Assembly: GCA_964406295.1 (NCBI GenBank)
Contig: CAYORB010000002.1
Location: forward strand, 658-64,218
DNA from: an uncultured Candidatus Peribacteria bacterium
Lineage (GTDB): Bacteria > Patescibacteriota > Gracilibacteria > UBA1369 > LOWO2-01-FULL-3
Reading direction: 5' to 3'
Length of the DNA stretch: 63,561 bases
The position numbers and the translations under genes were made by a program. Positions 16,408 to 37,321 of the stretch are shown here, in pieces. The stretch's first letter is position 1; each line of letters opens with the position of its first letter. Under the pieces are notes generated by a model, which was not told the origin of the DNA, did not search any database, and worked only from the letters and a program-made list of their open reading frames with translations.

Positions 16408-18152
16408 GGTACATTTGGTTTTTCCTTGATCTTGGCAATGGCTTCAGTGTTAATTTTTCCATAAAGATCTCTGAAAGATTTGAATAAATTGTTCATATCT
16501 CGCATTTCCAATAAGACATTTCGCAGATAAAGCATTTGATTTGTTCCAGTATCCCCACTTTTATAAGTTTTAACTTGCTGAGCAGCTTTAGCAGCATATG
16601 AGTCAGAAGTTTCTTGTACTTGGTTTAAAATATCTATCTGACTACTACCTGAAGGTGCATTACTACGAATAAATTCACTAGCACCTTCAACTCCTGTATT
16701 AGCAGCGTCATCATCAGTAAATTGGATTTCTTGAAGTAACACAGGTTGATAGCGATTTGCAAAATCATTCCATTCATCAAAAATATTTTTACCAAAAATC
16801 AATTCATCATTAGCTGGAGTTGGTATGGGATTCCATATAGTAATAAACTGAATATTTAAAAGGCTGCCAGTTTTTTTACACTTCGCTGATTCCAATAAAT
16901 TCCCAGTTGCTTTGCCAGGTATAAGAGAATGACTCAAAGTTTTCTCCATTAGTTTATTAATTTTTTCTATTTCACATTGTATACAAGAATCTCCAGGATT
17001 ATAACTAGATAAAGTTTCTCTAATCAATTGAACACTAAGACACACAGATGCATTTGCTTGAATATATTCATTATCAGACCGCGCTGAAGCTCCAACAAAT
17101 TGTGGGGCAGGCGGTGATCCTCCAATGCTTTTAAAATTATCAATAAAGTCACCAACACCTTCCTTAGAAAAATTATTAACTGATCCACTGCCAGTATCAG
17201 GAAATCCAGGACACCAGGGACTACCCCAAGCACCAGCAGGAGCAGCTTGTAATTCTTCCTCTTCTTCTTCTAAATCTTCGTCATCATCTTCATCAAAACC
17301 AACAATACCATTCACATCATCTCCACCACCAGGTCCATTATTTCCATCATCTGCTACATCACGATCCGCTTCCTCTTCTTCAAATTGATCTATTGCATCT
17401 TTAGTGGGATCATCAGAGATACAAACATCTTCTTCTAAAATTTCAACCGGAACTTCTTCATCACCGATTTGCAAAACTGCAGCAGCGTCTTTTTCAGAAG
17501 TCAAAGCCAATCTATCAATCGCAACAGGAGTATCACTATATACATAATCATCAAAAGTTTCATCACGTTCAGTCGCATTATTAGGAGAATCAAGAGCTCC
17601 TACAAAATCCCCACCAACAGTACTAGCGGTTTCGTTAAAGAATAAAATCTTCTCAATAGTATCCAAATCATGAATCAAATCGAAACCTGAATCCGAAAGA
17701 TCACCATTAGCAAATATTTCACTTGGCTTAATGGCCATATCAACCTCTTGTTTTATATCATAAAGTTCTTTTATATCTTTGAAATCTTCCTGTGCATCTT
17801 TCAAAACAATCATTGCATCTTCCATAGTTAAAACTGTTCCTTTGCGGTCAGGTGAATTAAAAATTGGAGTCACAGAACCGTCCAAAACGGCTTGAGCTTC
17901 AGCTGTAGTCATACCATAATTAGCTGCTAAATCTCGCAATGCGTCTTTGTCTGGATATTCCATAGTCTTTTTATAAATGAGAAGATATAAATCCATTCCA
18001 TCTGCCAAATCAAAAACATCACTCCAAGAAAAGCTATCACTCGCAGCTCCATCACCATGAGCGATTTCGGCAACATCAACGCTAATCATTATCATAGTTA
18101 GGAAAACTCCTATGATAAGACCCCAGCTAATTGGTAAAAATTTTATTTTCAT
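16404..18152 (-). CDS. secreted or membrane-anchored orphan protein (582 aa) with an acidic Asp/Glu/Gly linker
   Basis: N-terminal hydrophobic segment ISWGLIIGVFLTMIMISV, acidic tract DDGNNGPGGGDDVNGIVGFDEDDDEDLEEEEEE, and a Cys-containing C-terminal domain with CIQC. The ATG immediately follows the upstream TAA. Confidence 0.75.
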   Translation of the reverse strand: MKIKFLPISWGLIIGVFLTMIMISVDVAEIAHGDGAASDSFSWSDVFDLADGMDLYLLIYKKTMEYPDKDALRDLAANYGMTTAEAQAVLDGSVTPIFNSPDRKGTVLTMEDAMIVLKDAQEDFKDIKELYDIKQEVDMAIKPSEIFANGDLSDSGFDLIHDLDTIEKILFFNETASTVGGDFVGALDSPNNATERDETFDDYVYSDTPVAIDRLALTSEKDAAAVLQIGDEEVPVEILEEDVCISDDPTKDAIDQFEEEEADRDVADDGNNGPGGGDDVNGIVGFDEDDDEDLEEEEEELQAAPAGAWGSPWCPGFPDTGSGSVNNFSKEGVGDFIDNFKSIGGSPPAPQFVGASARSDNEYIQANASVCLSVQLIRETLSSYNPGDSCIQCEIEKINKLMEKTLSHSLIPGKATGNLLESAKCKKTGSLLNIQFITIWNPIPTPANDELIFGKNIFDEWNDFANRYQPVLLQEIQFTDDDAANTGVEGASEFIRSNAPSGSSQIDILNQVQETSDSYAAKAAQQVKTYKSGDTGTNQMLYLRNVLLEMRDMNNLFKSFRDLYGKINTEAIAKIKEKPNVP

Positions 18153-18836
18153 TTATTGGCATTGGCTCGACGTTGAGTCGATAAATTTACTAGGAAATAA
18201 CATGACTTCTTTACGTATATCTTTTAATGATAATTTGTATTTAACTAGATTTTCAATAATTTCTTGGTATTTACGGTGCAGGGGATAAGCAATAGCAAAT
18301 TCATTATAAGCAGCCACAGTTCCTTCCATTATCGCTTTAGATTTATCCACTTCTTTCTCAATCGCATTGCCCTTTACAATCAATTCATCTATACGCCCCT
18401 GTATGCTGGAACTACTGCCGTCATGCAAACTATCTTTGATAGATTCAACTTGTCTCACAAATTCAAGGTAGATATAAAGAGCTTCCATAGAAACACAATA
18501 ACTACTAATATTTTCACCATTTTCTTCACATTTTTGTACTATAGTTAATAGACTATCTTTTTCTTTTTCAATATTTTCAGGTACAAGAAAATTTTTTCTT
18601 TTCTTAAGATCTTTCATAAAGGCATCGTCTTCCAAAAGTTCTTTCAAAGCATCAATTTTATCATTGAATAAATCATTCATCTCTTGATGATACAAATCGA
18701 ATATTATCTTGTAATGAAGATCAGAATCTCTGAAACTCAAACTTCTATTATTATCAGCATAAATAGTATAACTACCATATAAAACAGTATTTGTTATAAG
18801 AGCTACAAGCAAACTAATTATAATTCTTTTTATCAT
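18153..18836 (-). CDS. secreted helical orphan protein (227 aa)
   Basis: Signal or anchor peptide MIKRIIISLLVALITNTVLYG. There is a 0-nt spacer to both neighbouring genes. C-terminus LFPSKFIDSTSSQCQ. Confidence 0.7.
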   Translation of the reverse strand: MIKRIIISLLVALITNTVLYGSYTIYADNNRSLSFRDSDLHYKIIFDLYHQEMNDLFNDKIDALKELLEDDAFMKDLKKRKNFLVPENIEKEKDSLLTIVQKCEENGENISSYCVSMEALYIYLEFVRQVESIKDSLHDGSSSSIQGRIDELIVKGNAIEKEVDKSKAIMEGTVAAYNEFAIAYPLHRKYQEIIENLVKYKLSLKDIRKEVMLFPSKFIDSTSSQCQ

Positions 18837-19433
18837 TTAAATTGTTATACATTCTTGTAAGAAACCAGGTAGTTTTGATTTAAAAGTCATAAAGAAACCA
18901 TACATTTTTGCTATATGCATATTTAAATCACGAAGTTGACTATTTATAGACTTATATTTTTCTAACATAATAGTAGTTCTTTTTTGAGCGTTAGTATTTT
19001 TTATATGTTCAATCATTCTTTGTTTACCAAGATCTAAGTATGAATCTGTGATTTGCGAACAACTTTGAATAGCATCTATTTCATCAATCTTAACATTACT
19101 AAAACCATCTAACCTTCTAACACCAGTTTCCAAAGCATGAAAATTTTCCTGAATTTTCAATTTGTATTGGCTGTATCTAGCAATAGCAATATTTGTAAGA
19201 GAATCATTCGAACTTTTATTTTGGAAATTAGTTTCCAAAAATTTCAAGAATTCAATCAACTCTAAATCATAAACAGGTACTAAAGTATTTTGACAATCCG
19301 TAACAGATTTACTGCTTATCTCAGATGACAAAGTGTTTTTCAATAATTTTAATTCTTCTTCAGGAGATACAGCATAAACAATGTTTCCAAGTAGTAAAAA
19401 AAGAATAATTGTAAGAGAGATAAATTTTTTCAT
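18837..19433 (-). CDS. secreted helical orphan protein (198 aa)
   Basis: Signal peptide MKKFISLTIILFLLLGNIVYA. The start overlaps the giant-gene stop by 1 nt (TAATG). C-terminus TFKSKLPGFLQECITI. Confidence 0.7.
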   Translation of the reverse strand: MKKFISLTIILFLLLGNIVYAVSPEEELKLLKNTLSSEISSKSVTDCQNTLVPVYDLELIEFLKFLETNFQNKSSNDSLTNIAIARYSQYKLKIQENFHALETGVRRLDGFSNVKIDEIDAIQSCSQITDSYLDLGKQRMIEHIKNTNAQKRTTIMLEKYKSINSQLRDLNMHIAKMYGFFMTFKSKLPGFLQECITI

Positions 19434-22400
19434 TAATTTGATATTAATACTTCATTACCTTTTGAGAAAATATAACTTCGTTTTTCAGGATCTTCATAAT
19501 CAACATGAATGACAGGATAGAAAACATCTCCAGGCAGTACATCATCACCGTTTATAAATGTGGATACACAAGGACATGTATTACATTCAGCCGGTTCTAT
19601 ATATATGCCAGGCTCCCCATCTTTTGGTTCTGTAGCAATTCCAGTATTAGCTCTAGCAACAGAATCATCGCCGCTGTTATCATCGTCATCACCACCGTCA
19701 CCACCATCATCCATAGAACCATCACCACCGTCATCGCCATCATCCATAGAACCATCACCACCGTCATCACTAGATCCATCACCATTATCTCTATCATCAT
19801 CGGCATTGTCACTACCATTATCATCCATACCATTATCAAAATCTTTAGAACCACGTTCATCACTAGCATCAAGAGGGTTACTAAAACTCGCAACTTCATT
19901 TCCGTCAATTACACCACCCCCATCAGTATCAGGATTATATGGATCAGTTTTATAAATAAATATCTCAGCATTCGTACTAAGCCCATCATGGTCATGATCT
20001 TCAGATTCAGAATCACGAGGATTTAAACCATAAAGACATTCTTGTGAATTCAAAATTCCATCCTTATCAGGATCTTCATTTGGGGCATCTATATTGTATT
20101 TGCTTTCACAGAAATCAGACATTCCATCACCATCAGCATCAATTTCTTGGCATGAATGTATATCAAGAACTCTCTGTGTCATTACTAGCAATTCATCAAA
20201 AGTCATTTCTTTATCAGCTAAGGTAGCTTCTTGTTCTGTGATTATGTAATTATTAATCAAAAGTTTATCTTCAGTCATATATGGATCCAAATTTTGAGCA
20301 ACTAACAAAATTTCATTATACCAAGGATCACCTTCACCAACATCAGTCAAATCCACTATTTTTTCCATCTCAAGCGCACGTAAAATTATTTTCACAGATT
20401 CAGCTCTAGTTATTGTATTTAAAGGTCTGAATGGTAATAATCCTGAACTATCTTCTCTATTTCCTTTATAACCTTCCACTAATCCAAGCAAAGTAGCTTC
20501 TTTGATATAAGGATAATCACTATCCAAATTTTCTGAATCAAAAATAATATCATTATATCCCTCTCCTTCAGAGTAGGCTTCATAAGCTTCCGGTTTTCTT
20601 GGAATAATACAAAGCATATCCAACAATACTCTCACAAATTCCGCTCTGCTAACTAAATCAGCAGAATCAAATATACGTCCTTCTTCCAAATCCAAACTCT
20701 TAATAATATCAGCAAATTCACCTTGAGTGTAAGTATAGGCGCTGTACAGCGCTCCTGCAGATGGAGTACGAGGACTTCTAAATGGCAAATCATCTGAGCC
20801 AACTACGGTAAATCCATTAGCAGCTATATAGATTTCTGCTACTGCTGTCCCATTAACTGAAATAACAAAAATCAAAGGACTATTTTTCTGAAGATTTTCT
20901 TTCTTTTCTAAGCTAACTCCATCAGTCATGATAATCACATTTCCAGATGTATCTATCAAAGCCAAAGTTTCTTCCGTATCTCTATTTACAAGTATGGCAG
21001 CACCAGGATTACTTGGATCATCAGCTGCTAATTGAATAAGATCATATTGATCATCAATAATTACATCATTCATATTTACACCATTTAGATCTTTATAATT
21101 TGATTCATCAATTTCAAATTCTTCGTGTAATACCACATCAACATTCGGATCTGCGACTATTACAACTGAGCCCAAAACAACTCCGTCAGGACTAACTATA
21201 TCTGTTCTGGTAGGGGAGACAGGAACATGAGCTGGCTGCACAACTGCTTCATATCCATCAACTAAGATGTTAATATTTCCAGTCTCAGGATGAATTTCAG
21301 CAACTACTTCTTCGTTACTATTTTTAACTAAAATCATCCCTTCATCTTCAAAATCATTAATTTGATATTCGCCATTTATATCAGTTTCATTTTTCTCAAT
21401 TATATCCGTTTTCAATACCAACTTTGTTTTTCCGTCTACAACTCTGTAAATATAACGGTCTCTAATCAACGCAAAAGGAATATCAGACAAACGCGGTGAC
21501 ACCATACCAGTTGCAATATAAGTCCTGGCAAAACTAGGATTCAAACTAATTTCAGGAGCAAAAACATTTACTGTAATTTTTTGATTCGAAGAATTTTTAT
21601 TTTCATCTATCAAATGTAAAACAAATTCACGCTGACCTATGTCACCTTCATTAATAAAAGGACCGATTTTAAATACAAAACCATCTTCATTTAAATCAGG
21701 ATAAATACGTTCATCTAAAGTAGTAAACACCATGCCAGGAGTAGAAGAGTAAGGCTGTGTTTCTAAATAAGCTTCGACTATTTCACCATTAGCATCAAAA
21801 GATTTACTCGCATCGATTCTCAATTCTTCATATATGGACATATCAAATACAGAGGAATTAATCACAGGAAATGGAGCCTCAGTATCCGCACAAGATTGAG
21901 GAGCCAACAATGCATGCGTTGAACTAAGAGATCTTTTACCATCAGGAGTTAAGGCATAAACATATGCGTAATAATTAGCATTTTCTAATTCCAAACTTAC
22001 TTGAGGTTTATCTTTGTTTGATAATTGAAGTATCTGCTCTTCAGCTAAGTTAATCTCCGATAATAAAATCTGACTTTCTTTACTATCTATTGGATTTGTA
22101 AGAGCAATATATCTTTGATCAAGAATATCTCTATCAGAACCATAAATAGAAGATTTCAAAATAATCTCATAAGCGTAAATATCATCACCAGCACTTAGCC
22201 AGCTCAAATCAGCGGTACCACTATTTAAATACGGAGAACTCAAACCTTGCACAGCGATTTCACCATCATTTAGATAATCACTAATTGAAGTTCGGCTTTC
22301 TATTTTCTTACCCTTTGGTTGATCTTCGATTATTTCCTTATTCTCTTTCAAATAAACATCACCACCTAAAGAATAAACAATATCAACATCACTATCCTTA

Positions 22401-25400
22401 TCAACATTACTGAAAAGTGTATGAGTTTTCTTCTTCAGTTCAAAAGTATAATTGAGTATATTTTCGTTTAAACCATCATTACCTACAATATAGAATCCTT
22501 TAGCTTGCGGGCGGGAGTTATGTTGTTTTTTCGCTAACTCTCTTTGATCAATTGTGATGTCGCCAGCCAATAGAACTCTTTCTTCAATTTCATCTGCAGC
22601 TTCAGTAAGTTTTTCTTCAATAGCATCTCCAAAGAACGAAAATTCTACAGTCTCAGAACCTGAACTGCTAGGATGTGATGTAGCTACGAGTCTGGGTCTT
22701 TGTTCATCACTTTGAGCTAAAATACGTCCAAAATCCTCCAAATTATCAATATCTTCAAGCAATTCATTCGAATCATAAATACCATCTGCATAATCAATAA
22801 GAGAACCTCTTAGAGAAGCAAGTTTTTTGATAGCAGGATTATCAGATAATTTTTCATTAGAAATACTAAATTTAACATCAGCTAAACTACGATTTAATAA
22901 TGGATCATTATTTCCCAATAAAGTTTGACTTGCTACTAAATTATGAGTTTCAGGATAATCATATTTATCTAGACTTGAAATATATTCAGTCAAAATTTTA
23001 TTCACATCTTCCATAGCAGTTTTAATTTGCTCAAATTCAGCAAATTCAGGGGAATCCAAAGACGCACTAGGTCCGCTCACATTAATATCAATTTGTTCAT
23101 CTCCAAAAGGTAAATCAATTGCACCTCCCGCATTTTCTAAAGCTTTTTCAAATTGTTCATCAATAGCTTTTTGAATCAAATTACTCAAAATTTCTCCATA
23201 AGGAAATTGAGTATATTTATTAATATTCTTCACCATATTTTTCACTTTTTCATTCCAAACTTTGAAACCTTTTTTAGCTTTGTTGTAAATAAACTCAGTT
23301 TCTACATCAAATCTCAATTTAGCCGTAACTCTTATTTCCTTCACATAATCATATTGTATAGGCGGCCATTGCATACCAAGTTGAGAGATAATAGGTAAAA
23401 CCGCTTGTACACTTGGTTGAGTTAAAGTTTCAATTTCAGTTTCAAGGGCAGATTCAGGAACAGGAACCAAACCATTTTTCAACAAGCAAAGAACACGGAA
23501 AACAGGCTTAAGTTTTGATACAACTTGTAATACAGCATTAGGTATTTCAGGAATTTTTGGTGGACGTGGAATATCAGGTAGTTGAGGTAGAGGTAATGGT
23601 GGTAAGTCAGGCAAATCAGGTAATACAAAAGTTGGAATATCAGCCACATCAAATCCAGGGATTTCAAAACTCACTTCAGGTAAAAACTCAGGTAAAGTGA
23701 TACTTGGTAGATCTGGTAGTTTAATAGGTTCAGGATTAAACGTCACATCAGGCCACACAATTTTTACACCTGTTTTTATTTGAGAAAGATCAACTATTAG
23801 ATCAGGCCATTTTGGCATTTCTATGATAGGTGGATCTGGAATCGCAACGAAAATTTGCAATAAGAGGCTTAATTTACTAAACCTATCATTTTTACATTGA
23901 TCACAAGCAGTTTGATAATCTGCAGATAAATCCAATAACACTTGCCATTTTTTAAACGTTTCTATTGCAGTTTCAACAGCCTTCATCCAGCTTTCAACTA
24001 TTTTTTGTTGTTTACTGATATATCCACCAGTAAAGTTCATAATCGCATCTAAATAACATACTATTTGAGTAGCATATTTCGCTTCCAGATGTCTATAATT
24101 CAAAATTTTCCTTGGAAGAGAAGCCAATTGATCCAAAAGATCAAGTAGATCACTTACACCGTTAATAAAGTCATTCATATCAACTGTGATTTTGTCACAA
24201 ACTGTTTTTTTAGCTTCATTTTCATCACATTTCCAAACAGCCAAACGTTCATCCAGTTGCTTTTGCATATCCTTTTTCCATTTCTTCCATTGTTCTTTAT
24301 ATTTATCAATTTCTTTCTGCGAAACAGCCGGAATTCTTACCGCTATTTCCTTACCTTCTATTTGAATCAAAGGAATACTGCTTAAGGTAGTAGCAAAATC
24401 ATGAAAACTTTGGAAATTAACTTCACTCGTCGCTTTTACATTATTTTTTATAAACGGAACTACATCAGGAAGAATTAAATAAAATTTAGGAAAATCCAAT
24501 AATTTATTAAAAATTTCATCCATCTGATTATCTAACCAATTTGTTATAATACTAGGAAACCCTGGAATTTTCACATTACCTCCCAGTGAAGCAGAGACAG
24601 TGTCATTGTCAGACCCAAATCCGCTGTCAAATTCACCTCCTTCAATGTCAGCTGTGTTAGAACCATCTGAAACTATAACAGCTTTACCAATTTCTGAATC
24701 TACAACCGCCTCTTTAGCATCAGCTATGGCATCACCAACTGCACCAATCACAGAATCACAAATTCCTGAAGCTCCAGGAATACCTCCAGGTACTGCAATG
24801 GCATAACAAGGTGAGGCATGACCAGGTCCTGGTCCAACACAAACGGCAGTGCCTAGGCCACCAGATAGGGTAGGTGATATATACCACCTACCTGACGAAG
24901 GTGCAGAGGAAGGATAGAGAGGCATAAAGTAAGGAAGATTTGGCGTACCAATCGCAAGTGCTGCAGTACCAGGCGTTGCACCATCAGGTACAAAAGCAGC
25001 ATAGTTATATGGGATAGGGGAACAACCACCACCTGAACAACGTAAAAGCGACAAAGCATTTTCCATTTTATTTGCTAAAGCATCAGCAGCATTTTCATGC
25101 TTTTCAAACGCACCGTCCCACATATCACTACAACCGTTATAATCTGAATCATGACTTTGTTGATCAACATAGCCCTGAATAACATCCGGAGTTGGAATTT
25201 GAGAATCTCCAGACTCATTATTATCAACAACAGGCACAGCATTATATTTCAAATGTTTCACTCGTCCTAGGCTATCAATTCCTGATGAATATAAGTAACT
25301 GACAATGCCTTCAGGGTTAAGTTCAGGTCTTACCATTATATCCAAACGAGTATCTTTGTTATTAGCAGCGTCTTTATAGTCAGTAAAATTATTACCAATA

Positions 25401-28400
25401 TCAAATCTAACCTTTGGCATTTGCTTTATTGCCATACTGTATTTGATATTACGCATAGAATTAGCTGGGACAGAAATACCTTCAATAACATGTGAACGCA
25501 TAGACATACCAGTTTCTTGCCAAGTCAATTCATCACCACAATTAACGTCTATACACGTCAAAGTATCAGGAAGTAATTCCATGGACAATGCCGTGGCATC
25601 TGAAAGCATTAAGTTATTAATATTGGAATTGCTATTATTTTTTAAAGTGATTATGTAATCAATTTTATCACCCACATCAGCATTTTCACCATTTATATCT
25701 ATAGCGATTTTACTTGAGTTAACACCAAATTTAGTATCAGAAGATAGTTGCACAAAATCAAACTCTCGTGAAAACCTAAGAGCAGGAATATAGGACTCGG
25801 CCATCTGAGAATTACTTTCAAAAGCTGCTTGGGCCGCAATCGCTTGCTGCGCAAGCTCATCACCCGGCTTCGGCTCATCACTTTTTAAAGAAAACTGCAA
25901 TACTTTGTTTTCCACCAATCTAATCCCAGGATAATGTATAAAAACACTATCCTTTTGGTTTTGATTTTGATCAATTTCAAAACCAAAATCCCAATCACGA
26001 GGAGCTTCACTATCCAATCCAACACATTCTCCGTCTTTGATTTTATTATGATAAACAGATATTTGACCTGAAGAATTACTGACCACCAAATCCTCACAAC
26101 CATCAAGATTCATGTCATCAGATTTCATTTCATATATCTTTTTACCATCCAGCGCCAAATCCAAACTGTATCTATCAAACCCACCACCATTATTCATATA
26201 AAGTGAGACACATTCTTCCTCAGCATTACAACTCTCATTTGTCCCAACAACAATATCATCATAAGAATCGTTATTCACATCTATTTTAGCCACACTCAAA
26301 ACCTCTCCGAAAATATTCAGTACAATTCCTTTCTCCACATAATTCCTATTACTAATAGAATTCTCCAATAACTTAACAACACCATTTTTATAAACTAGAA
26401 GTAAATCCTCACGCCCATCTCCATTCATATCAAACTCAAGCATTTCCTTAATCTGCTCCTGACCGTTGTAAAGTTGTTTACCAAGATCACGACTATATCC
26501 ACTGCCATTGCTTACTAAATCCTCTTCAATATCAAGACTTATCATCGGATCACCATAAATAATTCCGACTTCAGAAGCATAGGGCATATGAGATTCTCCC
26601 ACTGAATTACCAGCTGCAAATAATAACATATGTTTATTTTCTCCTTGAAACCCAAGTCCAAAATTATTATTAACATCTTCTAATGAAGTCTGAGCAAAAC
26701 CAGGTTTATGTTCAGGAGCCAATGTATTTTCTTTATCCACTAAATACACACCCATAGGATGAGCAGTAGAATTCCTACTAAAAGAATCTTCTAATCCATA
26801 TTTTTTTGAATTAGAAGCAAGTTGAATAGCAAGACCAGGGAAAAGATTATTCCTACTACTATCAAAATTCATCTTCCTAACATTTTGACGGAAATTTTGA
26901 TTAATACTCACGACAGCATAAGGCAGCTCATTATAAGTCACAACAAAGGTCAAATGACTTAAACTAAGGTTATCATTTTCTTCAGGCAATCTAACAGAAA
27001 AATCATCACTATTAAGAAAAACTCTACCCAACTTATCAATCCTCACATGTCTTTCGCTACCTTCTTCTATGTATATCTCATCACCAATCAATTTAGCTTC
27101 AAGATTAGACTGTGGACTAATAATTTTCACATAAACACCTTCTTCTTTTGCATTTAATTCTTGTTCATTTTCCAGCAAACTCAATGCCAGCTCTTTAGGT
27201 TTCACCAAAAAAGTAGCCAATTCTTTTTTAGCGATTCTGTCAGATAATATAATTTTATGATAATCAAGTTTCTTAGACGCAGGAACTAAAACCGATTCAA
27301 TTTGATTAGACATGAGTTCTATAACTCCATAAGCGTCCACTGAAATCAGTTTTTTATATCCATCTGGATCAGCTGTTATAGCGCTCACGACTTGCGACTG
27401 CCCATTATACAAAATTTTCTGAGCCAAATTCTCTCTTAGCAATTCGTCACCAAAATCACCACCAAGTAAAGAAGTATACAAAGATCTAGGCGCAAATTTT
27501 TCTACATCACTAGCTCTAATAAATTTTTTCACATCCAAAGATAAATACGCAGAATCTAAGTCAGGGGATTTAGCCACAAAATTAACTTTACCAGATTTTC
27601 CTTTACTCACAATCTGAGTAGAAGCTATTCCTTCTAGACTTAGAGCACTTGCAGCCTCAAAATCAATAAGTTCATCACCAGCTTCACTCACAGCAAACTC
27701 AACTCTCCTTCCATTATCTTTACTTACAAGATTCCCAAAACTATCCAAAAGTCTTGCTTGTAGAAAAACACTTTCCTCAGGATTAGTACTTATAATTTTC
27801 TCAGAACTTATTAACTCAATTTGAGTTGCTTCACCAGCAACAGTTTTCAATTTAGCGTTTGTAGAGGCAAAACCTGGCACAGTAATAGAAATTTCAACAT
27901 TACCGGTTAAGCTAGAAGATTGAAACAGAGCATCAGCCGCTTTAACCACTCCAGCCTTCATTTTTTCTGCTGCTTGATTCTTAAATCCACCAAAACTAGA
28001 GGTCAAAATCTCAAAATCAATAGGTCCATTATAACTTCCAACCACTTGATCTTCATAAAGCATAGTCACTTCAAATCCAGCAATATCAGATTTATTTGCA
28101 AGGATTTCATCCACAGTATTAAAATTTCTATCCACTATATCTACAGCCAGCTCCACGCTATCCACCACATCAAGCGTGACAGAAGCTCCTATTTCATTCA
28201 CAAAATCAATCTCTCTCCATCTTTCACCAACTTCAAGAAATCTATTCTCCAAATTCCTATCCATCAAAACAAAAATCAGATGAGCTAAACCAACCTGATC
28301 CTTAGCTATTACATCCAATTCAGCTACACCTTCCATTGTATTTAACTGAGTACCCACAATCACTGAACTCATATCCACACTCGGATTTATTTCAACAACA

Positions 28401-31400
28401 TCATTACTAAATACAGCAACTTGAGAGAAATCATTATTCGCCAAATTCCCAAACTCATCATAAAGTGAAATCGTGAAATGCGATTTCGATTGATTATTCG
28501 CTACTAACAAAAAGCTATTAGCTTCAACTTCTATAGCTACAGGTTCTCCAGCTTCTAATTGTATTTCTTTCTTAGCATAAGGATAAATACCTTCACTAAT
28601 AACATCAGCACGTAGATTTACAAAACCAGTTTTAGTCCCAGTTTTTATACTAACAAAAGCGATTCCATTTTCAGTGCTAACAACATTTTCTCCAACAAAT
28701 TCAGCCAATTCATTATCCAAAGAAAATTTTAATTGATGTACGACATCAGAATCAATACCATCATTTCCCCATACTTGTACTTCAAATTCCATTATGCCTT
28801 CACCATCAGCAACAAGAGCATCTTCATCAGAGAAAATTTTAATCTCATTATTAGTAGAATTGATTTGAACAGCATTTGAAAATAAACCTTCATCAGTTTT
28901 CACTCTAAGGGTAGCCATACCTACAACATCACTTGCTCTTAATTTAAACTCAACTTTACCATTTTCAAATTGCTTAGAATCTGAACTCGTAACATCAAAA
29001 GCGACTTCCTCTTGAACAATTTCAAGATTACCTAGTTCTTTAGCATTCACTATCGCATTAGCATTTTCATCATAAGCAGTTCCGCTTACTATCACTTCAT
29101 CAGAAGTTTTCGTAGAAGCAACATATCTATCAACCTCCAATTCTATTCTATCAATTCTAGTAAGAGGGATTTCATTATCATCAAAATGAAAATTCGGATT
29201 AAATCCACAGGATTGTTCAAAATTCGGCACTGAAGTAAATCCGTCTATAAATATTTCCAATTCTTTAAGAAATTGATCCAACCATACAAACTCCCAGTCA
29301 TCTTCATCACCTTCTTCTTCAATAGCTTCAATATCCCTACCTTGTCCAACTCCAATATTTTGCTCCAAAGCATTAAACTCAGAATCTTCCTCAGGTAAAT
29401 CCTTATTAAAACTCATTCCAAAATAATCTTCCTGCCCATCAAACACTAAATAACTAGCTTCATATCCATTACTAGAATCATTTATATAAGCATCATGTTC
29501 CTTATCTCCATTCAAATAATATTCCAAAACATAATGATGTTTTTCATCTATATTCATATTTAACCAATCCAAAGCATCAGATAATTTCGCAGTAGAAGCT
29601 CTGCGTAAATTAAAACCACTGATCGGATAATCAGTAATATTAGTCACAACAGTGGCCAGATATTTATTTACTATTTCAGTTTCAATTTCTTCAAAAGTAT
29701 AAGTATTCGGTGCAGCACTTGGATCAATCAACATCTGAGCACCAGGCAAGCGAGACAACTCCTTAGCCTTATCACTTACGGCCTTGCTTACATCACTAAT
29801 ATCAGAGATTTCTTCATCAAAAAGATTTATATAATCAACTTTAGCAGTGAGACCCGAATGCGCCTTTGGAGTAGTGGGTTGAGTTTGAAACGCCACATAG
29901 CGTGGATTATCTATAGGCAAAGAAAACGAGTTTTTAGACTTTATCTGCTGGCTAATAGTATAAGGCGTTGGTTCATTGTGAACGATAATAGAGGAAATTT
30001 CACTACCATTTTCAGACTCAAATTGATGCGGATTTACGTTTAAAATTAAATCAGTATTAAAAACTTGTCCCCAGTTTTCTTCAGTCACTTTTTGTCTAAA
30101 TGATTCAGAACCAAAAGGGATAGTGTAAGTAGTTTCGTGAGAGAGTAGTTTTCTTGAGATTTCTGGCAAATTTTCACCATCTAAACCAAAAGCAGGATTA
30201 GCTTCTTCATAATCATAGAATTTTGTTTCAGCAACGCCATCCTCATCTTCATCAATAAATTTAAAATCAACAATTCCATCACCATCATTATCAATCCCAT
30301 CAAAAAGCCCAAAATGATCAGAAAAATTCGCAAGTGAAACAGATTCACCTAATGTATTAAGCATAATTTCACTAGCATTTAATTCATCCATACCTAACCA
30401 AATACCTTCTTTTGGACTAAAGTCACTGCTATCTTTTGGGGCACCACCATGTACATAATCAGGCTCATCACCCAAACGACTATCTGCAAACAAAGCAAAA
30501 GATTCCATCAACTGTCCATACCAATCAAGATCAAAAGTAGGAGCAGCACCAGGATTTCCAGTTGAAATATCTAAAACAAATTCATAAGGATTAGAATCAC
30601 TACCGCCTTTTTGATACGAAGGTAATCCAACACCAAAACAAGAATTAAGATAAACATCATCAATATCTTCAAAATCATTGGATGGAAATTTATATATATC
30701 CACTGAATTCTCCCAATCACTTACCCTGCCGGAATTTATAAAATCATTAGTCTTTTTAACATTTACAGGAAACTGAAGCACAGGCTCATCTTGACCAGGT
30801 ATGGTCATTTTAATTGGTGCCAAACTACCAGCAGGATCCAAAACAGGAATAGAAGCAACTCTGCCAAGACATCTATCACTATTTCTGAAAGCGGAATTTG
30901 CATTACATCCAGCCGAAGCATCATAAGCCTGACTGTTATAACCTAAGACATCATTTTCATATAAAGTAAACAGAGCACCATCACTATCACCCCAGTCACC
31001 TGGGAATTCTATATTTTTAGGAAAAACTGCAAACTCAATATCAGGTTCACTTTCAGGATCTTCATCCGTTGTTTGTTTTATATCATCAGTATCTTCATGA
31101 ACTTCAACAGTAAAACTAACATTTTCAGAACGTTTTTCATTACCACGATAATACTCAAAATTAATCACACCTAAAACACTTAACACACGAATATCTTTTA
31201 ACTTAGGACTTGATATCAATTCATCCGCATCATCCCAAATTTCCAAAGGCGCAGGCAATTGAGCCAAGGGATTATTAGGATCAAACCTCATAATTTCATC
31301 TTTTGAAGCCACATTAAATTTAAAATCTTTCAAGCTATCCAGTTCCTCATCTTTTATGGCATCCATAAATTTAACAACCTCATTATAACTCTCAGCTATA

Positions 31401-33256
31401 GCCTGATCGAATGTATAGGCGAAGCTTAAGTTACGGCCATTCACAGACTTAATTACATCACCTTCCTTTAAAATTTTTTCAAACGGACCTACATAATCAT
31501 CTTCCTCAATAGGATTATGAATAAAAGCAGGTATTCCATAATCAGGATTAGATTCAACAATAGCAGCAGTTTCAGTTATACCTCCTGAGACAAGAGTCCC
31601 GCTATAAGTTTGATTAGTCACTTTATATAATTCTTCTGGTGACACAATTCTGGTATTCACTCCAGCGGTGACAACTGGCATAGCAGTAAGAGGATTATCA
31701 GAACGCATTGACCTGGTTAAAATAGAATAATCCCCATCAACGCCTTCATCCTTAGGATTAAACTGTAAATTCTCATCAAAATACTCAGACTTAGTGGAAC
31801 CCAAATAAGGGGCGCATAATTTCGCACTTTCCAAATCATTTGCATTGATACCGTTTATGTACAAAGCACCATCTTTATCATTCAAATAATGAAACCGCAA
31901 AACATGATTAGTAATCCCCAAGGGTGGATCATCACCAAGAATTTCATCACCAAGTTCACCAAGCAATCCTTCCTCAGATTCATCAGTAACAAAAACAGTA
32001 AATTCTCTACCATTTTCACCAAAAGAACCTGTTAAAACTGTGGAATCCAATAGAGGCAAAGGCTGCTCAATTTTCTCAACTATTTCATTGATCTTTTTTT
32101 CAAGAGCATCGTTCACACTACGAATATAGTAACGTGTATAATCATCTTTCATACTGATAAGTTCAGGCATGCTATCAATATCCTTAGCGCTATAACGCCC
32201 CATATAATCAGCCCAATCATTTACACTGGAAATATAACGATTTAGAACCTTGTAATAAGGCAAAAAAGCTTGATCGATCACAGATTTCGAATAAATATCA
32301 GGCAAAGCAGCCATAGAATCAGAATTTTGAAGCGCATCCAAAAAATTCCCTTCACTAGGTTTCAAATCATTATCCTCACTAGCTTCAAGATCAAAATCTA
32401 TAGGTAAATCTTCAATCACACTCCCGTTTACCTCTTGAGCCCAAAATTTATTATATCGCATGTAGATCAGATCCTCACTAGCTTCAAGATATTTAATATA
32501 ACGTTTATAAACATCAGGATGCATCTGTTCTTCTTCATGCACAAGATCACCAAAGAAAAGTTTTCTATCAAAATCAGCAAACATAGGTTCGCCATCATAA
32601 TAGAGATGATTTTTATCAAAAAACTCAGCCAAATCATTCACACGTTTAGCTTTTATAACACCATGCCAAGCTTCAGGTTTAGGAAAACCAACATTTTCAT
32701 TTCTTTCAAAACTATTAGTTTTTTCGTCATAAATATAAGCTTTATCAACAAAATCAGTATAAGGAAACATACTAATAAACTTATTCCCTGATTTACTGAC
32801 TACAGGTAAAGGCACATCACCTATCAAAACCACACCTCTTAATTGATTTTCATGCGAACCATCCCCAGAAATATAGAGATTTTCAAGAGCTTCAGACAAA
32901 GTCACAACAGTATCGATCTCTTTATCAAAAAACAAAATCTTAACATCAGTAAGATCATTATTCTCTATCAAATCATCAGCATAACGACTAATTCTCTCCT
33001 CAATTCCATCTTCCCTTAAACCGTATTCATCCTGTAATTCAGTTTCTATATCCACACCACGCAAATCTTTATCCACAACCAAGACAACTAGGTCATAAAG
33101 AGTATCACTATCATTCTCCGCTTCCACCACTTCAACCTGCTTTATTTTTGCAGCATAAACTGGCATAGGAAAGACAAAAATCTGAGTAAAACTCAAACAA
33201 AAAAGAGAAGTATAAACTACAAATTTTTTAAGGAAAAAGGGAAGAGTCATAAGCAT
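19433..33256 (-). CDS. 4607-aa secreted multidomain giant surface protein (Ig-like array, FG-GAP/VCBS-like, DUF11-like, SLH-like, TSP3-like Ca-binding repeats)
   Basis: One uninterrupted 13.8-kb ORF with a signal peptide ending VYA.
- Invasin-type Ig-like repeats, about 27560-29170 (LYDEFGNL, LLDSFGNLV).
- FG-GAP/VCBS-like, about 26050-26470 (DMNGDGREDLLLV, DVNNDSYDDIVVG, DMNLDGCEDLVVS).
- DUF11-like, about 25380-25700 (GDKIDYIITLKNNSNSNINNLMLSD).
- SLH-like, about 20360-20690 (SRAEFVRVLLDML, TRAESVKIILRAL).
- Thrombospondin-type-3-like DxDxDG repeats, about 19890-20150.
- Acidic D/G tract, about 19650-19880. Confidence 0.9.
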   Translation of the reverse strand: MLMTLPFFLKKFVVYTSLFCLSFTQIFVFPMPVYAAKIKQVEVVEAENDSDTLYDLVVLVVDKDLRGVDIETELQDEYGLREDGIEERISRYADDLIENNDLTDVKILFFDKEIDTVVTLSEALENLYISGDGSHENQLRGVVLIGDVPLPVVSKSGNKFISMFPYTDFVDKAYIYDEKTNSFERNENVGFPKPEAWHGVIKAKRVNDLAEFFDKNHLYYDGEPMFADFDRKLFFGDLVHEEEQMHPDVYKRYIKYLEASEDLIYMRYNKFWAQEVNGSVIEDLPIDFDLEASEDNDLKPSEGNFLDALQNSDSMAALPDIYSKSVIDQAFLPYYKVLNRYISSVNDWADYMGRYSAKDIDSMPELISMKDDYTRYYIRSVNDALEKKINEIVEKIEQPLPLLDSTVLTGSFGENGREFTVFVTDESEEGLLGELGDEILGDDPPLGITNHVLRFHYLNDKDGALYINGINANDLESAKLCAPYLGSTKSEYFDENLQFNPKDEGVDGDYSILTRSMRSDNPLTAMPVVTAGVNTRIVSPEELYKVTNQTYSGTLVSGGITETAAIVESNPDYGIPAFIHNPIEEDDYVGPFEKILKEGDVIKSVNGRNLSFAYTFDQAIAESYNEVVKFMDAIKDEELDSLKDFKFNVASKDEIMRFDPNNPLAQLPAPLEIWDDADELISSPKLKDIRVLSVLGVINFEYYRGNEKRSENVSFTVEVHEDTDDIKQTTDEDPESEPDIEFAVFPKNIEFPGDWGDSDGALFTLYENDVLGYNSQAYDASAGCNANSAFRNSDRCLGRVASIPVLDPAGSLAPIKMTIPGQDEPVLQFPVNVKKTNDFINSGRVSDWENSVDIYKFPSNDFEDIDDVYLNSCFGVGLPSYQKGGSDSNPYEFVLDISTGNPGAAPTFDLDWYGQLMESFALFADSRLGDEPDYVHGGAPKDSSDFSPKEGIWLGMDELNASEIMLNTLGESVSLANFSDHFGLFDGIDNDGDGIVDFKFIDEDEDGVAETKFYDYEEANPAFGLDGENLPEISRKLLSHETTYTIPFGSESFRQKVTEENWGQVFNTDLILNVNPHQFESENGSEISSIIVHNEPTPYTISQQIKSKNSFSLPIDNPRYVAFQTQPTTPKAHSGLTAKVDYINLFDEEISDISDVSKAVSDKAKELSRLPGAQMLIDPSAAPNTYTFEEIETEIVNKYLATVVTNITDYPISGFNLRRASTAKLSDALDWLNMNIDEKHHYVLEYYLNGDKEHDAYINDSSNGYEASYLVFDGQEDYFGMSFNKDLPEEDSEFNALEQNIGVGQGRDIEAIEEEGDEDDWEFVWLDQFLKELEIFIDGFTSVPNFEQSCGFNPNFHFDDNEIPLTRIDRIELEVDRYVASTKTSDEVIVSGTAYDENANAIVNAKELGNLEIVQEEVAFDVTSSDSKQFENGKVEFKLRASDVVGMATLRVKTDEGLFSNAVQINSTNNEIKIFSDEDALVADGEGIMEFEVQVWGNDGIDSDVVHQLKFSLDNELAEFVGENVVSTENGIAFVSIKTGTKTGFVNLRADVISEGIYPYAKKEIQLEAGEPVAIEVEANSFLLVANNQSKSHFTISLYDEFGNLANNDFSQVAVFSNDVVEINPSVDMSSVIVGTQLNTMEGVAELDVIAKDQVGLAHLIFVLMDRNLENRFLEVGERWREIDFVNEIGASVTLDVVDSVELAVDIVDRNFNTVDEILANKSDIAGFEVTMLYEDQVVGSYNGPIDFEILTSSFGGFKNQAAEKMKAGVVKAADALFQSSSLTGNVEISITVPGFASTNAKLKTVAGEATQIELISSEKIISTNPEESVFLQARLLDSFGNLVSKDNGRRVEFAVSEAGDELIDFEAASALSLEGIASTQIVSKGKSGKVNFVAKSPDLDSAYLSLDVKKFIRASDVEKFAPRSLYTSLLGGDFGDELLRENLAQKILYNGQSQVVSAITADPDGYKKLISVDAYGVIELMSNQIESVLVPASKKLDYHKIILSDRIAKKELATFLVKPKELALSLLENEQELNAKEEGVYVKIISPQSNLEAKLIGDEIYIEEGSERHVRIDKLGRVFLNSDDFSVRLPEENDNLSLSHLTFVVTYNELPYAVVSINQNFRQNVRKMNFDSSRNNLFPGLAIQLASNSKKYGLEDSFSRNSTAHPMGVYLVDKENTLAPEHKPGFAQTSLEDVNNNFGLGFQGENKHMLLFAAGNSVGESHMPYASEVGIIYGDPMISLDIEEDLVSNGSGYSRDLGKQLYNGQEQIKEMLEFDMNGDGREDLLLVYKNGVVKLLENSISNRNYVEKGIVLNIFGEVLSVAKIDVNNDSYDDIVVGTNESCNAEEECVSLYMNNGGGFDRYSLDLALDGKKIYEMKSDDMNLDGCEDLVVSNSSGQISVYHNKIKDGECVGLDSEAPRDWDFGFEIDQNQNQKDSVFIHYPGIRLVENKVLQFSLKSDEPKPGDELAQQAIAAQAAFESNSQMAESYIPALRFSREFDFVQLSSDTKFGVNSSKIAIDINGENADVGDKIDYIITLKNNSNSNINNLMLSDATALSMELLPDTLTCIDVNCGDELTWQETGMSMRSHVIEGISVPANSMRNIKYSMAIKQMPKVRFDIGNNFTDYKDAANNKDTRLDIMVRPELNPEGIVSYLYSSGIDSLGRVKHLKYNAVPVVDNNESGDSQIPTPDVIQGYVDQQSHDSDYNGCSDMWDGAFEKHENAADALANKMENALSLLRCSGGGCSPIPYNYAAFVPDGATPGTAALAIGTPNLPYFMPLYPSSAPSSGRWYISPTLSGGLGTAVCVGPGPGHASPCYAIAVPGGIPGASGICDSVIGAVGDAIADAKEAVVDSEIGKAVIVSDGSNTADIEGGEFDSGFGSDNDTVSASLGGNVKIPGFPSIITNWLDNQMDEIFNKLLDFPKFYLILPDVVPFIKNNVKATSEVNFQSFHDFATTLSSIPLIQIEGKEIAVRIPAVSQKEIDKYKEQWKKWKKDMQKQLDERLAVWKCDENEAKKTVCDKITVDMNDFINGVSDLLDLLDQLASLPRKILNYRHLEAKYATQIVCYLDAIMNFTGGYISKQQKIVESWMKAVETAIETFKKWQVLLDLSADYQTACDQCKNDRFSKLSLLLQIFVAIPDPPIIEMPKWPDLIVDLSQIKTGVKIVWPDVTFNPEPIKLPDLPSITLPEFLPEVSFEIPGFDVADIPTFVLPDLPDLPPLPLPQLPDIPRPPKIPEIPNAVLQVVSKLKPVFRVLCLLKNGLVPVPESALETEIETLTQPSVQAVLPIISQLGMQWPPIQYDYVKEIRVTAKLRFDVETEFIYNKAKKGFKVWNEKVKNMVKNINKYTQFPYGEILSNLIQKAIDEQFEKALENAGGAIDLPFGDEQIDINVSGPSASLDSPEFAEFEQIKTAMEDVNKILTEYISSLDKYDYPETHNLVASQTLLGNNDPLLNRSLADVKFSISNEKLSDNPAIKKLASLRGSLIDYADGIYDSNELLEDIDNLEDFGRILAQSDEQRPRLVATSHPSSSGSETVEFSFFGDAIEEKLTEAADEIEERVLLAGDITIDQRELAKKQHNSRPQAKGFYIVGNDGLNENILNYTFELKKKTHTLFSNVDKDSDVDIVYSLGGDVYLKENKEIIEDQPKGKKIESRTSISDYLNDGEIAVQGLSSPYLNSGTADLSWLSAGDDIYAYEIILKSSIYGSDRDILDQRYIALTNPIDSKESQILLSEINLAEEQILQLSNKDKPQVSLELENANYYAYVYALTPDGKRSLSSTHALLAPQSCADTEAPFPVINSSVFDMSIYEELRIDASKSFDANGEIVEAYLETQPYSSTPGMVFTTLDERIYPDLNEDGFVFKIGPFINEGDIGQREFVLHLIDENKNSSNQKITVNVFAPEISLNPSFARTYIATGMVSPRLSDIPFALIRDRYIYRVVDGKTKLVLKTDIIEKNETDINGEYQINDFEDEGMILVKNSNEEVVAEIHPETGNINILVDGYEAVVQPAHVPVSPTRTDIVSPDGVVLGSVVIVADPNVDVVLHEEFEIDESNYKDLNGVNMNDVIIDDQYDLIQLAADDPSNPGAAILVNRDTEETLALIDTSGNVIIMTDGVSLEKKENLQKNSPLIFVISVNGTAVAEIYIAANGFTVVGSDDLPFRSPRTPSAGALYSAYTYTQGEFADIIKSLDLEEGRIFDSADLVSRAEFVRVLLDMLCIIPRKPEAYEAYSEGEGYNDIIFDSENLDSDYPYIKEATLLGLVEGYKGNREDSSGLLPFRPLNTITRAESVKIILRALEMEKIVDLTDVGEGDPWYNEILLVAQNLDPYMTEDKLLINNYIITEQEATLADKEMTFDELLVMTQRVLDIHSCQEIDADGDGMSDFCESKYNIDAPNEDPDKDGILNSQECLYGLNPRDSESEDHDHDGLSTNAEIFIYKTDPYNPDTDGGGVIDGNEVASFSNPLDASDERGSKDFDNGMDDNGSDNADDDRDNGDGSSDDGGDGSMDDGDDGGDGSMDDGGDGGDDDDNSGDDSVARANTGIATEPKDGEPGIYIEPAECNTCPCVSTFINGDDVLPGDVFYPVIHVDYEDPEKRSYIFSKGNEVLISN
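19705..19768. repeat. 33-nt-period tandem duplication inside the acidic tract of the giant gene
   Basis: The 31-nt string CATCATCCATAGAACCATCACCACCGTCATC occurs at 19705-19735 and again at 19738-19768. It encodes GGDGSMDDGDD / GGDGSMDDGGD. Confidence 0.85.
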
Positions 33257-33427: not shown

Positions 33428-33928
33428 TTATTGGATCAATGTTAAATAACAATCTCCACCATCAGTTTTCAAAACAGGATTCTTATTAGCAGCAACTACA
33501 CAATCATAATTCCCACTAGGATCATTTTCAACATTTGTAATAAATCCGTGACTATAGTCTAAGCCTGCATCAAATTTAATATATTTATATTGTCCAGTAC
33601 AACCATCAGTAACATTATTTGGGTCAGGATCAACAGGGAAAACACCTGAAAAATCAGCTAAATTATCAGAAATCAATTTACCAATAGTACCAGCACCACC
33701 AGCAGCAGCATCATTAGCTACACATCCTCCATCAGCAGGTAGAACAGCCCTTTCAAGTATTTTTGATACCATAAAATTTTCTAATTTTTGAACTGATGCC
33801 AGTCTTTGTGCATCATTTCCTTTTCCAATCGCTCCGAACAGTGTTGGCAAGAAAGCAACAGCCAGAATACCGATAATGGCTATTACTATCAGCAATTCAA
33901 TAAGGGTGAAACCTTTTCGATTTTTCAT
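33428..33928 (-). CDS. type IV prepilin (N-terminal cleavage/methylation domain)
   Basis: MKNRKG|FTLIELLIVIAIIGILAVAF: short basic leader, Gly at -1, Phe at +1, Glu at +5 and a hydrophobic alpha1 helix. 166 aa with C-terminal Cys pairs. Flanked by 99- and 171-nt spacers. Confidence 0.9.
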   Translation of the reverse strand: MKNRKGFTLIELLIVIAIIGILAVAFLPTLFGAIGKGNDAQRLASVQKLENFMVSKILERAVLPADGGCVANDAAAGGAGTIGKLISDNLADFSGVFPVDPDPNNVTDGCTGQYKYIKFDAGLDYSHGFITNVENDPSGNYDCVVAANKNPVLKTDGGDCYLTLIQ

Positions 33929-35284: not shown

Positions 35285-35285
35285 T

Positions 35286-36701: not shown

Positions 36702-36707
36702 AGTTAT

Positions 36708-37319: not shown

Positions 37320-37321
37320 AA

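Follow-up and report, generated by a model that had tools for sequence, protein, structure and literature searches.

A candidate wall-anchored giant surface protein with four partner genes in Peregrinibacteria-type bacteria

Peregrinibacteria and their kin are uncultured, reduced-genome bacteria with a presumed life on other cells, and the locus described here encodes, in one of them, a predicted surface protein of 4,607 amino acids. The gene for this protein (hereafter the giant) occupies 19433..33256 on the minus strand of a 63,561-nucleotide stretch of DNA, hereafter the window, from an uncultured Candidatus Peribacteria bacterium (assembly GCA_964406295.1, contig CAYORB010000002.1, positions 658 to 64,218), and four smaller genes follow it. 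On balance, we read the giant as a lineage-specific, wall-anchored surface protein that would form a fibre complex for host contact in Peregrinibacteria-type bacteria within the candidate phyla radiation (CPR; Patescibacteria).

The giant protein and its wall anchor

The gene is a single uninterrupted open reading frame (ORF) with an ATG start, in which the first nucleotide of residue r is 33256-3(r-1); all features within it lie on the minus strand. A first-pass annotation, made by a model from the letters of the window alone, had described a giant protein with an unusual domain mosaic, and this was borne out. The giant has ~100 homologues of 4,000-5,600 amino acids that are collinear with it over their full length at ~37% identity. 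These homologues, together with loci encoding the giant's central core in 134 genomes (from a scan in which each GTDB species was represented by a single genome), rule out a fused, artefactual or chance ORF. There was about one locus per genome, and the 134 carriers are titled Peregrinibacteria, Peribacteria, Gracilibacteria, Altimarinota or 'Patescibacteria group'. The exception among them is a contig of a 'Nitrospirota' metagenome-assembled genome (L018, JAUVQE010000014.1), which carries a typical giant with an upstream pilin, its core at 50% identity; the contig was probably binned wrongly in the public record. Farther out, one distant giant (P0095) has both the N-domain and the core in common with ours at 24% identity, and six others (P0096-P0101) the N-domain alone. 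The names given to homologues are generic only (VCBS-, FG-GAP-, DUF11- or SLH-domain-containing, or hypothetical).

In a scan of the whole protein, curated cut-offs were passed only by FG-GAP (Pfam) and TIGR01451 (NCBIfam). Because a short domain scores several bits lower within a sequence of 4,607 residues, we re-scanned ten segments with Pfam, and here SLH (22.0 bits; cut-off, 20.8), FG-GAP (37.0; cut-off, 22.1), FG-GAP_3 (42.5; cut-off, 26.9) and Glyco_hydro2_C5 (34.9; cut-off, 32) passed, with no family at all in segments 36-480, 440-960, 940-1360, 1900-2210, 3340-3620, 3600-3910 and 3890-4200. Searched against all PDB sequences, a profile of ten diverse family members picked up Ig-like domains, propellers of integrin alpha and, from Paenibacillus alvei SpaA, the SLH trimer, with zero matches for profile positions 1-1350 and ~2600-4130; phmmer with the whole giant against the PDB gave weak EF-hand-like matches only. 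Altogether, these domain-wise searches left ~3,100 of the 4,607 residues (36-1360, 1900-2210 and 2700-4190), or about two-thirds, without a Pfam or PDB profile match. The first-pass annotation had set aside about 1,500 central residues as having no recognizable fold. In the centre, indeed, searches with Pfam, NCBIfam and PDB profiles found no match, nor did a fold search of the part that was modelled, but the extent was put too low, since 36-1360 and 1900-2210 are familyless as well. Reading the other unmatched stretches as cryptic Ig-like, propeller or DUF11 copies was rejected, save for one internal duplication (1967-2132 and 3982-4155).

Residues 1-35 (33152..33256) were read from the sequence as a Sec-type signal peptide (...VYA, then AK), as had been proposed: the N-terminus MLMTLPFFLKKFVVYTSLFCLSFTQIFVFPMPVYA, followed by AK, is the sole strongly hydrophobic non-beta segment in a hydrophobicity scan. 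The same scan of the whole protein found no second transmembrane-like stretch, and the giant therefore has no other membrane anchor. It is strongly acidic (809 Asp plus Glu versus 374 Lys plus Arg), and a motif search located five DxDxDGxxD sites.

Near the C-terminus, where the first-pass annotation had placed an SLH-like wall anchor, we found three SLH repeats (residues 4186-4368; 20153..20701). The Pfam SLH profile (PF00395) matches residues 4245-4286 with E 1.6e-4 when 4180-4607 is scanned alone, and reaches 15.6 bits, under its threshold, on the whole protein. SLH was matched in eight of ten family members (best E, 2.6e-7), and in the P. alvei SpaA SLH trimer, 182 residues long, the family profile finds its counterpart at 18-173 (E 1e-4). 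Only this profile succeeds against the PDB, the segment alone finding nothing there by single-sequence phmmer. The repeats (4186-4244, 4245-4305 and 4306-4368) are mutually similar (hhalign, 95.6, 91.0 and 79.2%). Repeat 1 carries the motif [TS]-R4204-[AK]-[ED], with R in 85 of 86 sequences, and repeat 2 the motif T-R-A4285-E4286 (A in 83 and E in 85 of 86); repeat 3 is degenerate. An anchor at this position leaves ~4,150 mature residues N-terminal to it, on the outer side, in line with the more than 4,000 that had been expected to project from the wall.

Since the window also encodes three strong SLH proteins (418-439 amino acids, 68-78 bits; 44698-45978 (+), 47406-48662 (-) and 51784-53103 (-)) and a LytR-CpsA-Psr (LCP) wall-polymer ligase (61206-63284 (-)), SLH anchoring is in use in this organism. 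The three mid-size proteins could be S-layer or wall proteins. Among known systems, SLH-anchored proteins of monoderm bacteria (P. alvei SpaA, Bacillus anthracis Sap and EA1, Clostridium thermocellum anchoring scaffoldins) resemble the giant in their three-repeat SLH module with TRAE-type motifs and, as predicted for the giant, in export by the Sec route and a functional part displayed outside the wall. Unlike them, the giant has its SLH module near the C-terminus, with calcium repeats, then an acidic linker and lastly a Cys domain behind it; it would display its ~4,150 residues mostly without a known fold, has four dedicated partner genes and occurs in CPR bacteria.

The tail behind the anchor begins with Asp-rich, calcium-binding repeats of thrombospondin type 3 (TSP3) or EF-hand-like character at residues 4369-4458 (19883..20152), with a weak match to the NCBIfam MtsD thrombospondin-3 model, a lanmodulin/EF-hand match at E 0.01 and TSP3_bac in 3 of 10 members. 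It continues with an acidic Asp/Gly tract of low complexity at residues ~4470-4532 (19661..19849), whose length varies among homologues (gap fraction, about 0.7). The end is a family-specific domain (19436..19621) with an invariant C4558-x-x-C4561-P-C4563, within the ECNTCPC at 4557. All three parts had been picked out correctly in the first-pass annotation. A hidden Markov model (HMM) of the Cys domain, applied to 85 loci, matches solely the ends of giant genes, and a role for the domain as a general sorting tag was accordingly rejected. ORFs of 100-170 amino acids at 19505-20026 (+), 19560-19955 (+) and 19597-19908 (-) overlap the Asp/Gly-rich tract and are low-complexity by-products, not genes.

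Five-gene operon, pilus neighbours and function

Four genes on the minus strand follow the giant: d198 (198 amino acids; 18837..19433), secreted, with a near-C-terminal Cys; d227 (227 amino acids; 18153..18836), secreted, with a conserved penultimate Cys; d582 (582 amino acids; 16404..18152), with a hydrophobic anchor at its N-terminus and a tract of acidic residues; and d376 (376 amino acids; 15277..16407), secreted, with a conserved ...QC.. tail. None of the four has a family match, and their N-termini are signal-peptide- or anchor-like. The junctions measure 0-4 nucleotides: the giant and d198 share nucleotide 19433, the next two pairs abut at 18836/18837 and 18152/18153, and d582 and d376 overlap at 16404-16407. 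By consensus match only, promoter-like hexamers stand ahead of the giant (33300-33258) and a terminator-like hairpin after d376 (15200-15186). By this layout, the giant and its four followers look like a tightly, indeed translationally, coupled operon with its own start.

Counted over 80 species loci (L006-L085), and only where a locus had enough sequence, downstream orthologues were present for d198 in 53 of 63, d227 in 59 of 60, d582 in 57 of 57 and d376 in 48 of 51, and the order of the four genes was identical in 50 of 50. A d227 homologue (E 2e-10) also follows the giant of an Altimarinota relative. We tested the partners as kin of the giant or of one another and detected no relationship. 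A Cys lying 2-5 residues from the C-terminus is conserved in d198 (54 of 55; consensus ...LPGFLxxC[IV]T..), d227 (58 of 61; ...FIDATSxxCx) and d376 (49 of 51; ...[RK]QCxx); these three Cys tails can be set beside the three Cys in the CxxCPC tail of the giant. On the opposite strand, a small HTH_17-type gene (14591-14905 (+)), which may be a local regulator, is kept after the operon in ~50 of 80 loci (tblastn). In distant relatives, SLH proteins are encoded just after the operon: a protease combining Trypsin_2 and SLH in L004 (24852-27221 (-)) and a 712-residue protein in L005 (26695-28833 (+)).

Upstream of the giant and on the same strand lie pilus genes, comprising a type IV pilin with a GFTLIEL prepilin motif (33428..33928 (-)) and assembly genes (34028..38536 (-)) for PilC/T2SSF, PilB/T2SSE, a PilO-like protein and a 404-residue bitopic protein, which were identified by Pfam and have orthologues in L001 and L002. 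The whole arrangement, which runs from rplJ-rplL through pilus genes, pilin(s), the giant and its four followers to an HTH gene and uvrA, recurs at 35% and 30% identity. In L001 (HGW-Peregrinibacteria-1), a tandem set of four pilin genes, together with a NUDIX hydrolase (6920-9885), lies between PilC and the giant, where the window has a single pilin; in P0094, a pilin adjoins the giant but PilB and PilC do not.

In the reading we prefer, the giant would be exported by Sec and tethered through its SLH repeats to a secondary cell-wall polymer, from which it would project as a long, calcium-stiffened fibre with an N-terminal head at its distal end. Between head and anchor the protein has Ig-like domains, a calcium-binding propeller, a DUF11 repeat, a module used twice and a strongly conserved core of 650 residues. 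The post-anchor tail (calcium repeats, acidic linker and CxxCPC domain) would stay close to the wall or membrane and join the four partners, three of them Cys-tailed, as a base, possibly by disulfides or a metal site that they share. Once assembled, this complex would serve contact with, and attachment to, other cells, presumably hosts, alongside the type IV pilus encoded next to it. The adhesive role is suggested by the domain types and by a general proposal in the literature, where giant envelope proteins of these lineages are treated as putative host-attachment factors (PMC8080830, PMC4736985, PMC11452946).

Several points weigh against this reading. We infer adhesion solely from domain types (Ig-like, integrin-like propeller and DUF11) that cover <25% of the giant. 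Collinearity from end to end and a single copy are unusual for a host-specific adhesin, which normally varies by repeat expansion, and end-to-end conservation with a single copy would fit a structural or mechanical machine about as well. Genes for the SLH-binding polymer and a CsaB pyruvyl-transferase were not found within the 63-kb window. As to the pilus, a terminator-like hairpin (33393-33360; 15-bp stem, then a T run; a consensus match) parts the pilin from the giant, of the 24 informative loci only about 14 have a pilin ≤3 kb upstream, and pilus genes are absent near the giant of the Altimarinota relative; the pilus link is therefore frequent and not obligatory. The hairpin would suit strong expression of the pilin and attenuated read-through. 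The disulfides or shared metal site that the Cys tails and CxxCPC may form are speculation from Cys counts. Lastly, AlphaFold2 modelled the core (residues 2695-3350, 28 alignment rows) with low confidence (predicted local distance difference test (pLDDT), 60; predicted template modelling score (pTM), 0.35).

Because the conservation pattern fits a machine about as well, we keep as the main rival a structural envelope or motility machine that is no adhesin, in which the giant and its four partners would make up a permanent apparatus on the surface (a scaffold, a spacer or a 'leg') with a mechanical core. We regard it as unlikely but far from negligible. It would account for a single-copy, collinear protein conserved over its whole length, core included, for the invariant order and translational coupling of the five genes, for a housekeeping neighbourhood (rplJ/rplL, uvrA) kept over 30% sequence divergence and for the adjoining genes of a motor-driven pilus. 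However, the five-gene unit contains no motor or ATPase, and for the analogy with SprB and Gli349/Gli521 no sequence or fold likeness was found. These analogues belong to gliding bacteria, which have giant surface proteins with accessory genes, namely SprB with SprC/D/F in Flavobacterium and Gli349, Gli521 and Gli123 in Mycoplasma mobile. They resemble our locus in that one or two giants and a few small partners are tied to a surface motility or attachment apparatus, whereas they have no detectable sequence or fold relationship to the giant and differ in envelope and secretion route.

The giant non-fimbrial adhesins (Salmonella SiiE, Pseudomonas LapA and Marinomonas MpIBP) offer another comparison, being similar in size, acidity, calcium sites, Ig-like domains and presumed attachment role. 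They consist mostly of tandem Ig-like repeats, use type I secretion and are retained at the outer membrane, whereas the giant has only ~540 Ig-like residues, an SLH anchor and a mostly non-repetitive, conserved sequence. No RTX-type or type I secretion system (T1SS)-signal family was matched in it by Pfam at E≤1 in whole-protein and segment scans.

The pilus genes invite a further alternative, that PilB, PilC and the pilin act as a type II pseudopilus driving the Sec-exported, folded giant of ~500 kDa through the wall. A Sec signal on a very large folded extracellular protein and the conserved adjacency to T2SSE, T2SSF and pilin genes, with no PilT at the locus, are what such a cargo would show, but we consider the idea improbable: adjacency is not universal, the terminator-like hairpin separates pilin and giant, no monoderm precedent was found and pilT could sit elsewhere in the genome. 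Elsewhere in the window, two further large ORFs (72-3380 (+), 1,102 amino acids; 7312-11067 (+), 1,251 amino acids) have no Pfam match.

The central core and neighbouring modules

The core comprises residues 2695-3350 (23207..25174). In a conservation map of 86 full-length homologues, residues 2740-3300 are among the most conserved of the giant, and its centre is not a mere spacer; within the unassigned centre, the core is the best-conserved part. Invariant features include the CSGGGC motif (C2740-G-G-G-C2745-x-P-x-P-x-N), cysteines 2806, 2817, 2833, 3010, 3020, 3067, 3118, 3121 and 3257, P2898-G-F-P, W2907, P-K-W-P-D at 3148-3152 and a polyproline block, LPDLPPLPLPxLPDxPRPPKIP, at 3213-3236. 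When an HMM of the core was searched against 1.84 billion cluster representatives, at least 560 proteins matched at E≤1e-3 and 340 at ≤1e-30. The best 150 of the 560 carriers are all giants or giant fragments, and in the complete ones among these 150 the core lies 2,000-3,800 residues from the N-terminus. Since all of the best 150 are giants or their fragments, the core appears to be the signature of a large, uncharacterized superfamily. It is followed by residues 3351-3981 (21314..23206), which have no Pfam or PDB match and include a DxDxDxD site at 3619.

In the low-confidence model, a Gly/Pro-rich hydrophobic stretch forms a small beta sheet and leads into a disordered Ser/Gly/Asp loop. A very long, Cys-studded helical hairpin (~2980-3119) follows; behind PKWPD the chain forms a beta hairpin, and then come an extended stretch rich in Pro and terminal helices. 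Foldseek found no PDB match to the model at E≤0.001. Such a core could be imagined as the membrane-inserting or fusogenic module of a device with which an episymbiont or predator breaches its prey, and predators that harm host membranes do occur in related lineages (PMC8080830). A Gly/Ala/Pro-rich hydrophobic stretch, a Cys-stapled long helical hairpin and a Trp/Pro-rich segment would suit this role, and the best, non-significant Foldseek matches are mostly actinoporin-fold pore formers. We find it very doubtful, however. All of the fold matches have E about 1 or worse, with a template modelling (TM) score of about 0.2 and a root-mean-square deviation above 10 Å, and so are not evidence; the actinoporin matches of the core were dismissed as noise, with E about 1, TM about 0.2 and a deviation of 10-20 Å. 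The model is of low confidence, no core segment has transmembrane-like hydrophobicity, and the core is internal, separated from the anchor by ~1,300 residues and from the tip by 2,700.

On the N-terminal side of the core, the modules that do match known families had been largely foreseen by the first-pass annotation. The invasin-type Ig-like array it proposed spans residues 1363-1903 (27548..29170), with Big_1 at 1476-1552, Invasin_D3 at 1574-1608 and Glyco_hydro2_C5 at 1813-1903. Whereas Glyco_hydro2_C5 passes its cut-off in the segment scan, Invasin_D3 (32.2 versus 33) and Big_1 (27.7 versus 34.9) fall just below; among ten family members, the three were found in 10, 8 (8e-17) and 6 (5e-14), respectively. 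The FG-GAP/VCBS repeats that had been noted are above Pfam cut-offs and lie at 2276-2339, with FG-GAP_3 in three stretches, in an integrin-alpha-type propeller region at ~2200-2450 (25907..26659), where DxDxDGxxD calcium motifs sit at 2276 and 2381. The family profile matches integrin alpha-4 and alpha-6 in the PDB (E ~4e-5). The region thus resembles integrin alpha and bacterial FG-GAP (VCBS) propellers in its above-cut-off repeats, calcium loops and profile match, but makes up only ~250 residues of the giant. A DUF11-like domain, also expected, lies at ~2517-2626 (25379..25708), where TIGR01451 matches 2524-2567 (26.2 bits; cut-off, 24) while Pfam DUF11 fails (17 bits; cut-off, 24.6). Finally, a ~160-residue module of no known family occurs twice, at 1967-2132 (26861..27358) and 3982-4155 (20792..21313), as a duplication (hhalign probability, 97.4; E 1.3e-11) with recurring (I/V)D..G.(I/V) hairpin-like motifs.

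A propeller with DxDxDG calcium loops, in a protein encoded directly downstream of pilin genes, also recalls the PilY1/PilC-type adhesins of pilus tips, in which a calcium-binding propeller would regulate or cap the neighbouring pilus. This reading is already disfavoured, and highly improbable in our estimation: the giant has a Sec signal and not a prepilin signal, a protein fixed by an SLH wall anchor could not ride on a pilus tip, Pfam gave no PilY1 or Neisseria_PilC match at E≤1, and prepilin motifs are absent from the four partners.

The N-terminal head and what the locus may mean

Residues 36-~1350 (29207..33151) have no Pfam or PDB sequence match. The AlphaFold2 model of residues 36-1235, from a 26-row alignment, has a mean pLDDT of 80.4 and a pTM of 0.76; since a high pTM over 1,200 residues means domains confidently packed in one body, we named it the head, and the first ~1,200 mature residues are predicted to be one compact multi-domain unit. 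In the conservation map, residues 400-950 hold lineage-variable inserts, and distant members have 730-900 residues where ours has 1,200. Searches with an N-domain profile found only fragments from the same clade.

The first-pass annotation had speculated that the N-terminus recalls a gingipain (C25-type) fold. At the level of fold this has some support. When the head model was compared with the PDB by Foldseek, gingipain R (RgpB; 1cvr, 4ief), of family C25 in clan CD, took ranks 1-3 with a probability of 1.00, over 169-177 columns at 18% identity (E 0.07-0.13; target-normalized TM, 0.23-0.24), and generic Rossmann-like folds ranked below. The likeness is confined to an alpha/beta subdomain of ~170 residues with a putative gingipain/caspase-like fold, whose approximate boundaries, from the secondary structure of the model, are ~54-220 (32597..33097). 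The rest of the head (~1,000 residues) has no PDB fold match with E <0.2, despite the high model confidence, and a viral structure library yielded nothing significant for the head, with metacaspases on top at a probability of ~0.2.

In sequence, by contrast, the resemblance fails. Whole-protein and segment scans gave no Pfam Peptidase_C25 match at E≤1, an eight-sequence N-domain profile matched no PDB entry, hhalign against RgpB residues 1-251 (sequence checked against 4ief/1cvr) returned a probability of 0.2%, and Smith-Waterman alignment of the two gave z = 1.1. The His/Cys dyad that the first-pass annotation had proposed looking for is not there: residues 21-480 contain zero cysteines, and the head is therefore not an active C25 protease. 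An active gingipain-type cysteine protease head, for which the RgpB ranks and the motif pattern pointed out earlier might speak, is thus refuted as a Cys protease, lacks profile or pairwise likeness to RgpB as well as a C25 match and retains next to no probability.

Invariance extends to very distant carriers at Y128, P151, P165, D168, F169, W197, H198, D237, Y253, R267, D371 and E386. The pair W197-H198 is thus invariant, yet without a Cys partner, and other catalytic chemistry via the invariant D168, H198 and D237 may be possible. The DNDGDG calcium-binding-like site that had been reported was located at residue 989 (nucleotide ~30292), within a conserved DGxDNDGDGxxD loop-like motif at 983-997 (30266..30310) whose G983, D986, D989, N990 and D997 are invariant. 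Towards the end of the head (residues ~940-1350; 29207-30439 (-)) stand near-invariant, His/Glu/Asp-rich motifs: S1089..H1093-N-E-P-T..T1100, P1114-I-D-x-P-R-Y, D1237-x-K-H1240 and G1264-Y-E..Y1269. They have no family or fold match and could mark a metal or catalytic site.

The clade-wide family, the coupled four-gene set, the type IV pilus neighbour and the compact head of 1,200 residues go beyond what the first-pass annotation contained. We found no description of the giant family, its core or the five-gene operon in the searchable literature, where a survey of huge proteins reports only that Peregrinibacteria are enriched in such proteins and that these carry no COG assignments (PMC11573180). 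As a kind, a giant, SLH-anchored and presumably adhesive CPR surface protein is already known; the core, the architecture of the head and the five-gene operon are new. In its boldest form, which we hold only tentatively and think unlikely as a whole, the giant and its partners would be a surface machine, so far undescribed, that belongs to the CPR's Peregrinibacteria/Gracilibacteria branch. This would be a wall-anchored host-contact apparatus functionally tied to a type IV pilus, with a core of new fold in a mechanical or membrane-active role and a head that is a new multi-domain unit for recognition or enzymatic work on a disarmed gingipain-like scaffold.

The gene for the giant spans ~14 kb, amounting to roughly 1% of a genome of ~1-1.5 Mb. 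Its conservation across the clade, its four partners and its position beside the pilus genes make it a prime candidate for a host-interface apparatus. Two large modules without a Pfam or PDB match, the 650-residue core and most of the 1,200-residue head, are targets for structural work, and the five-gene operon provides a marker for comparative and cryo-electron tomography studies of CPR surfaces.

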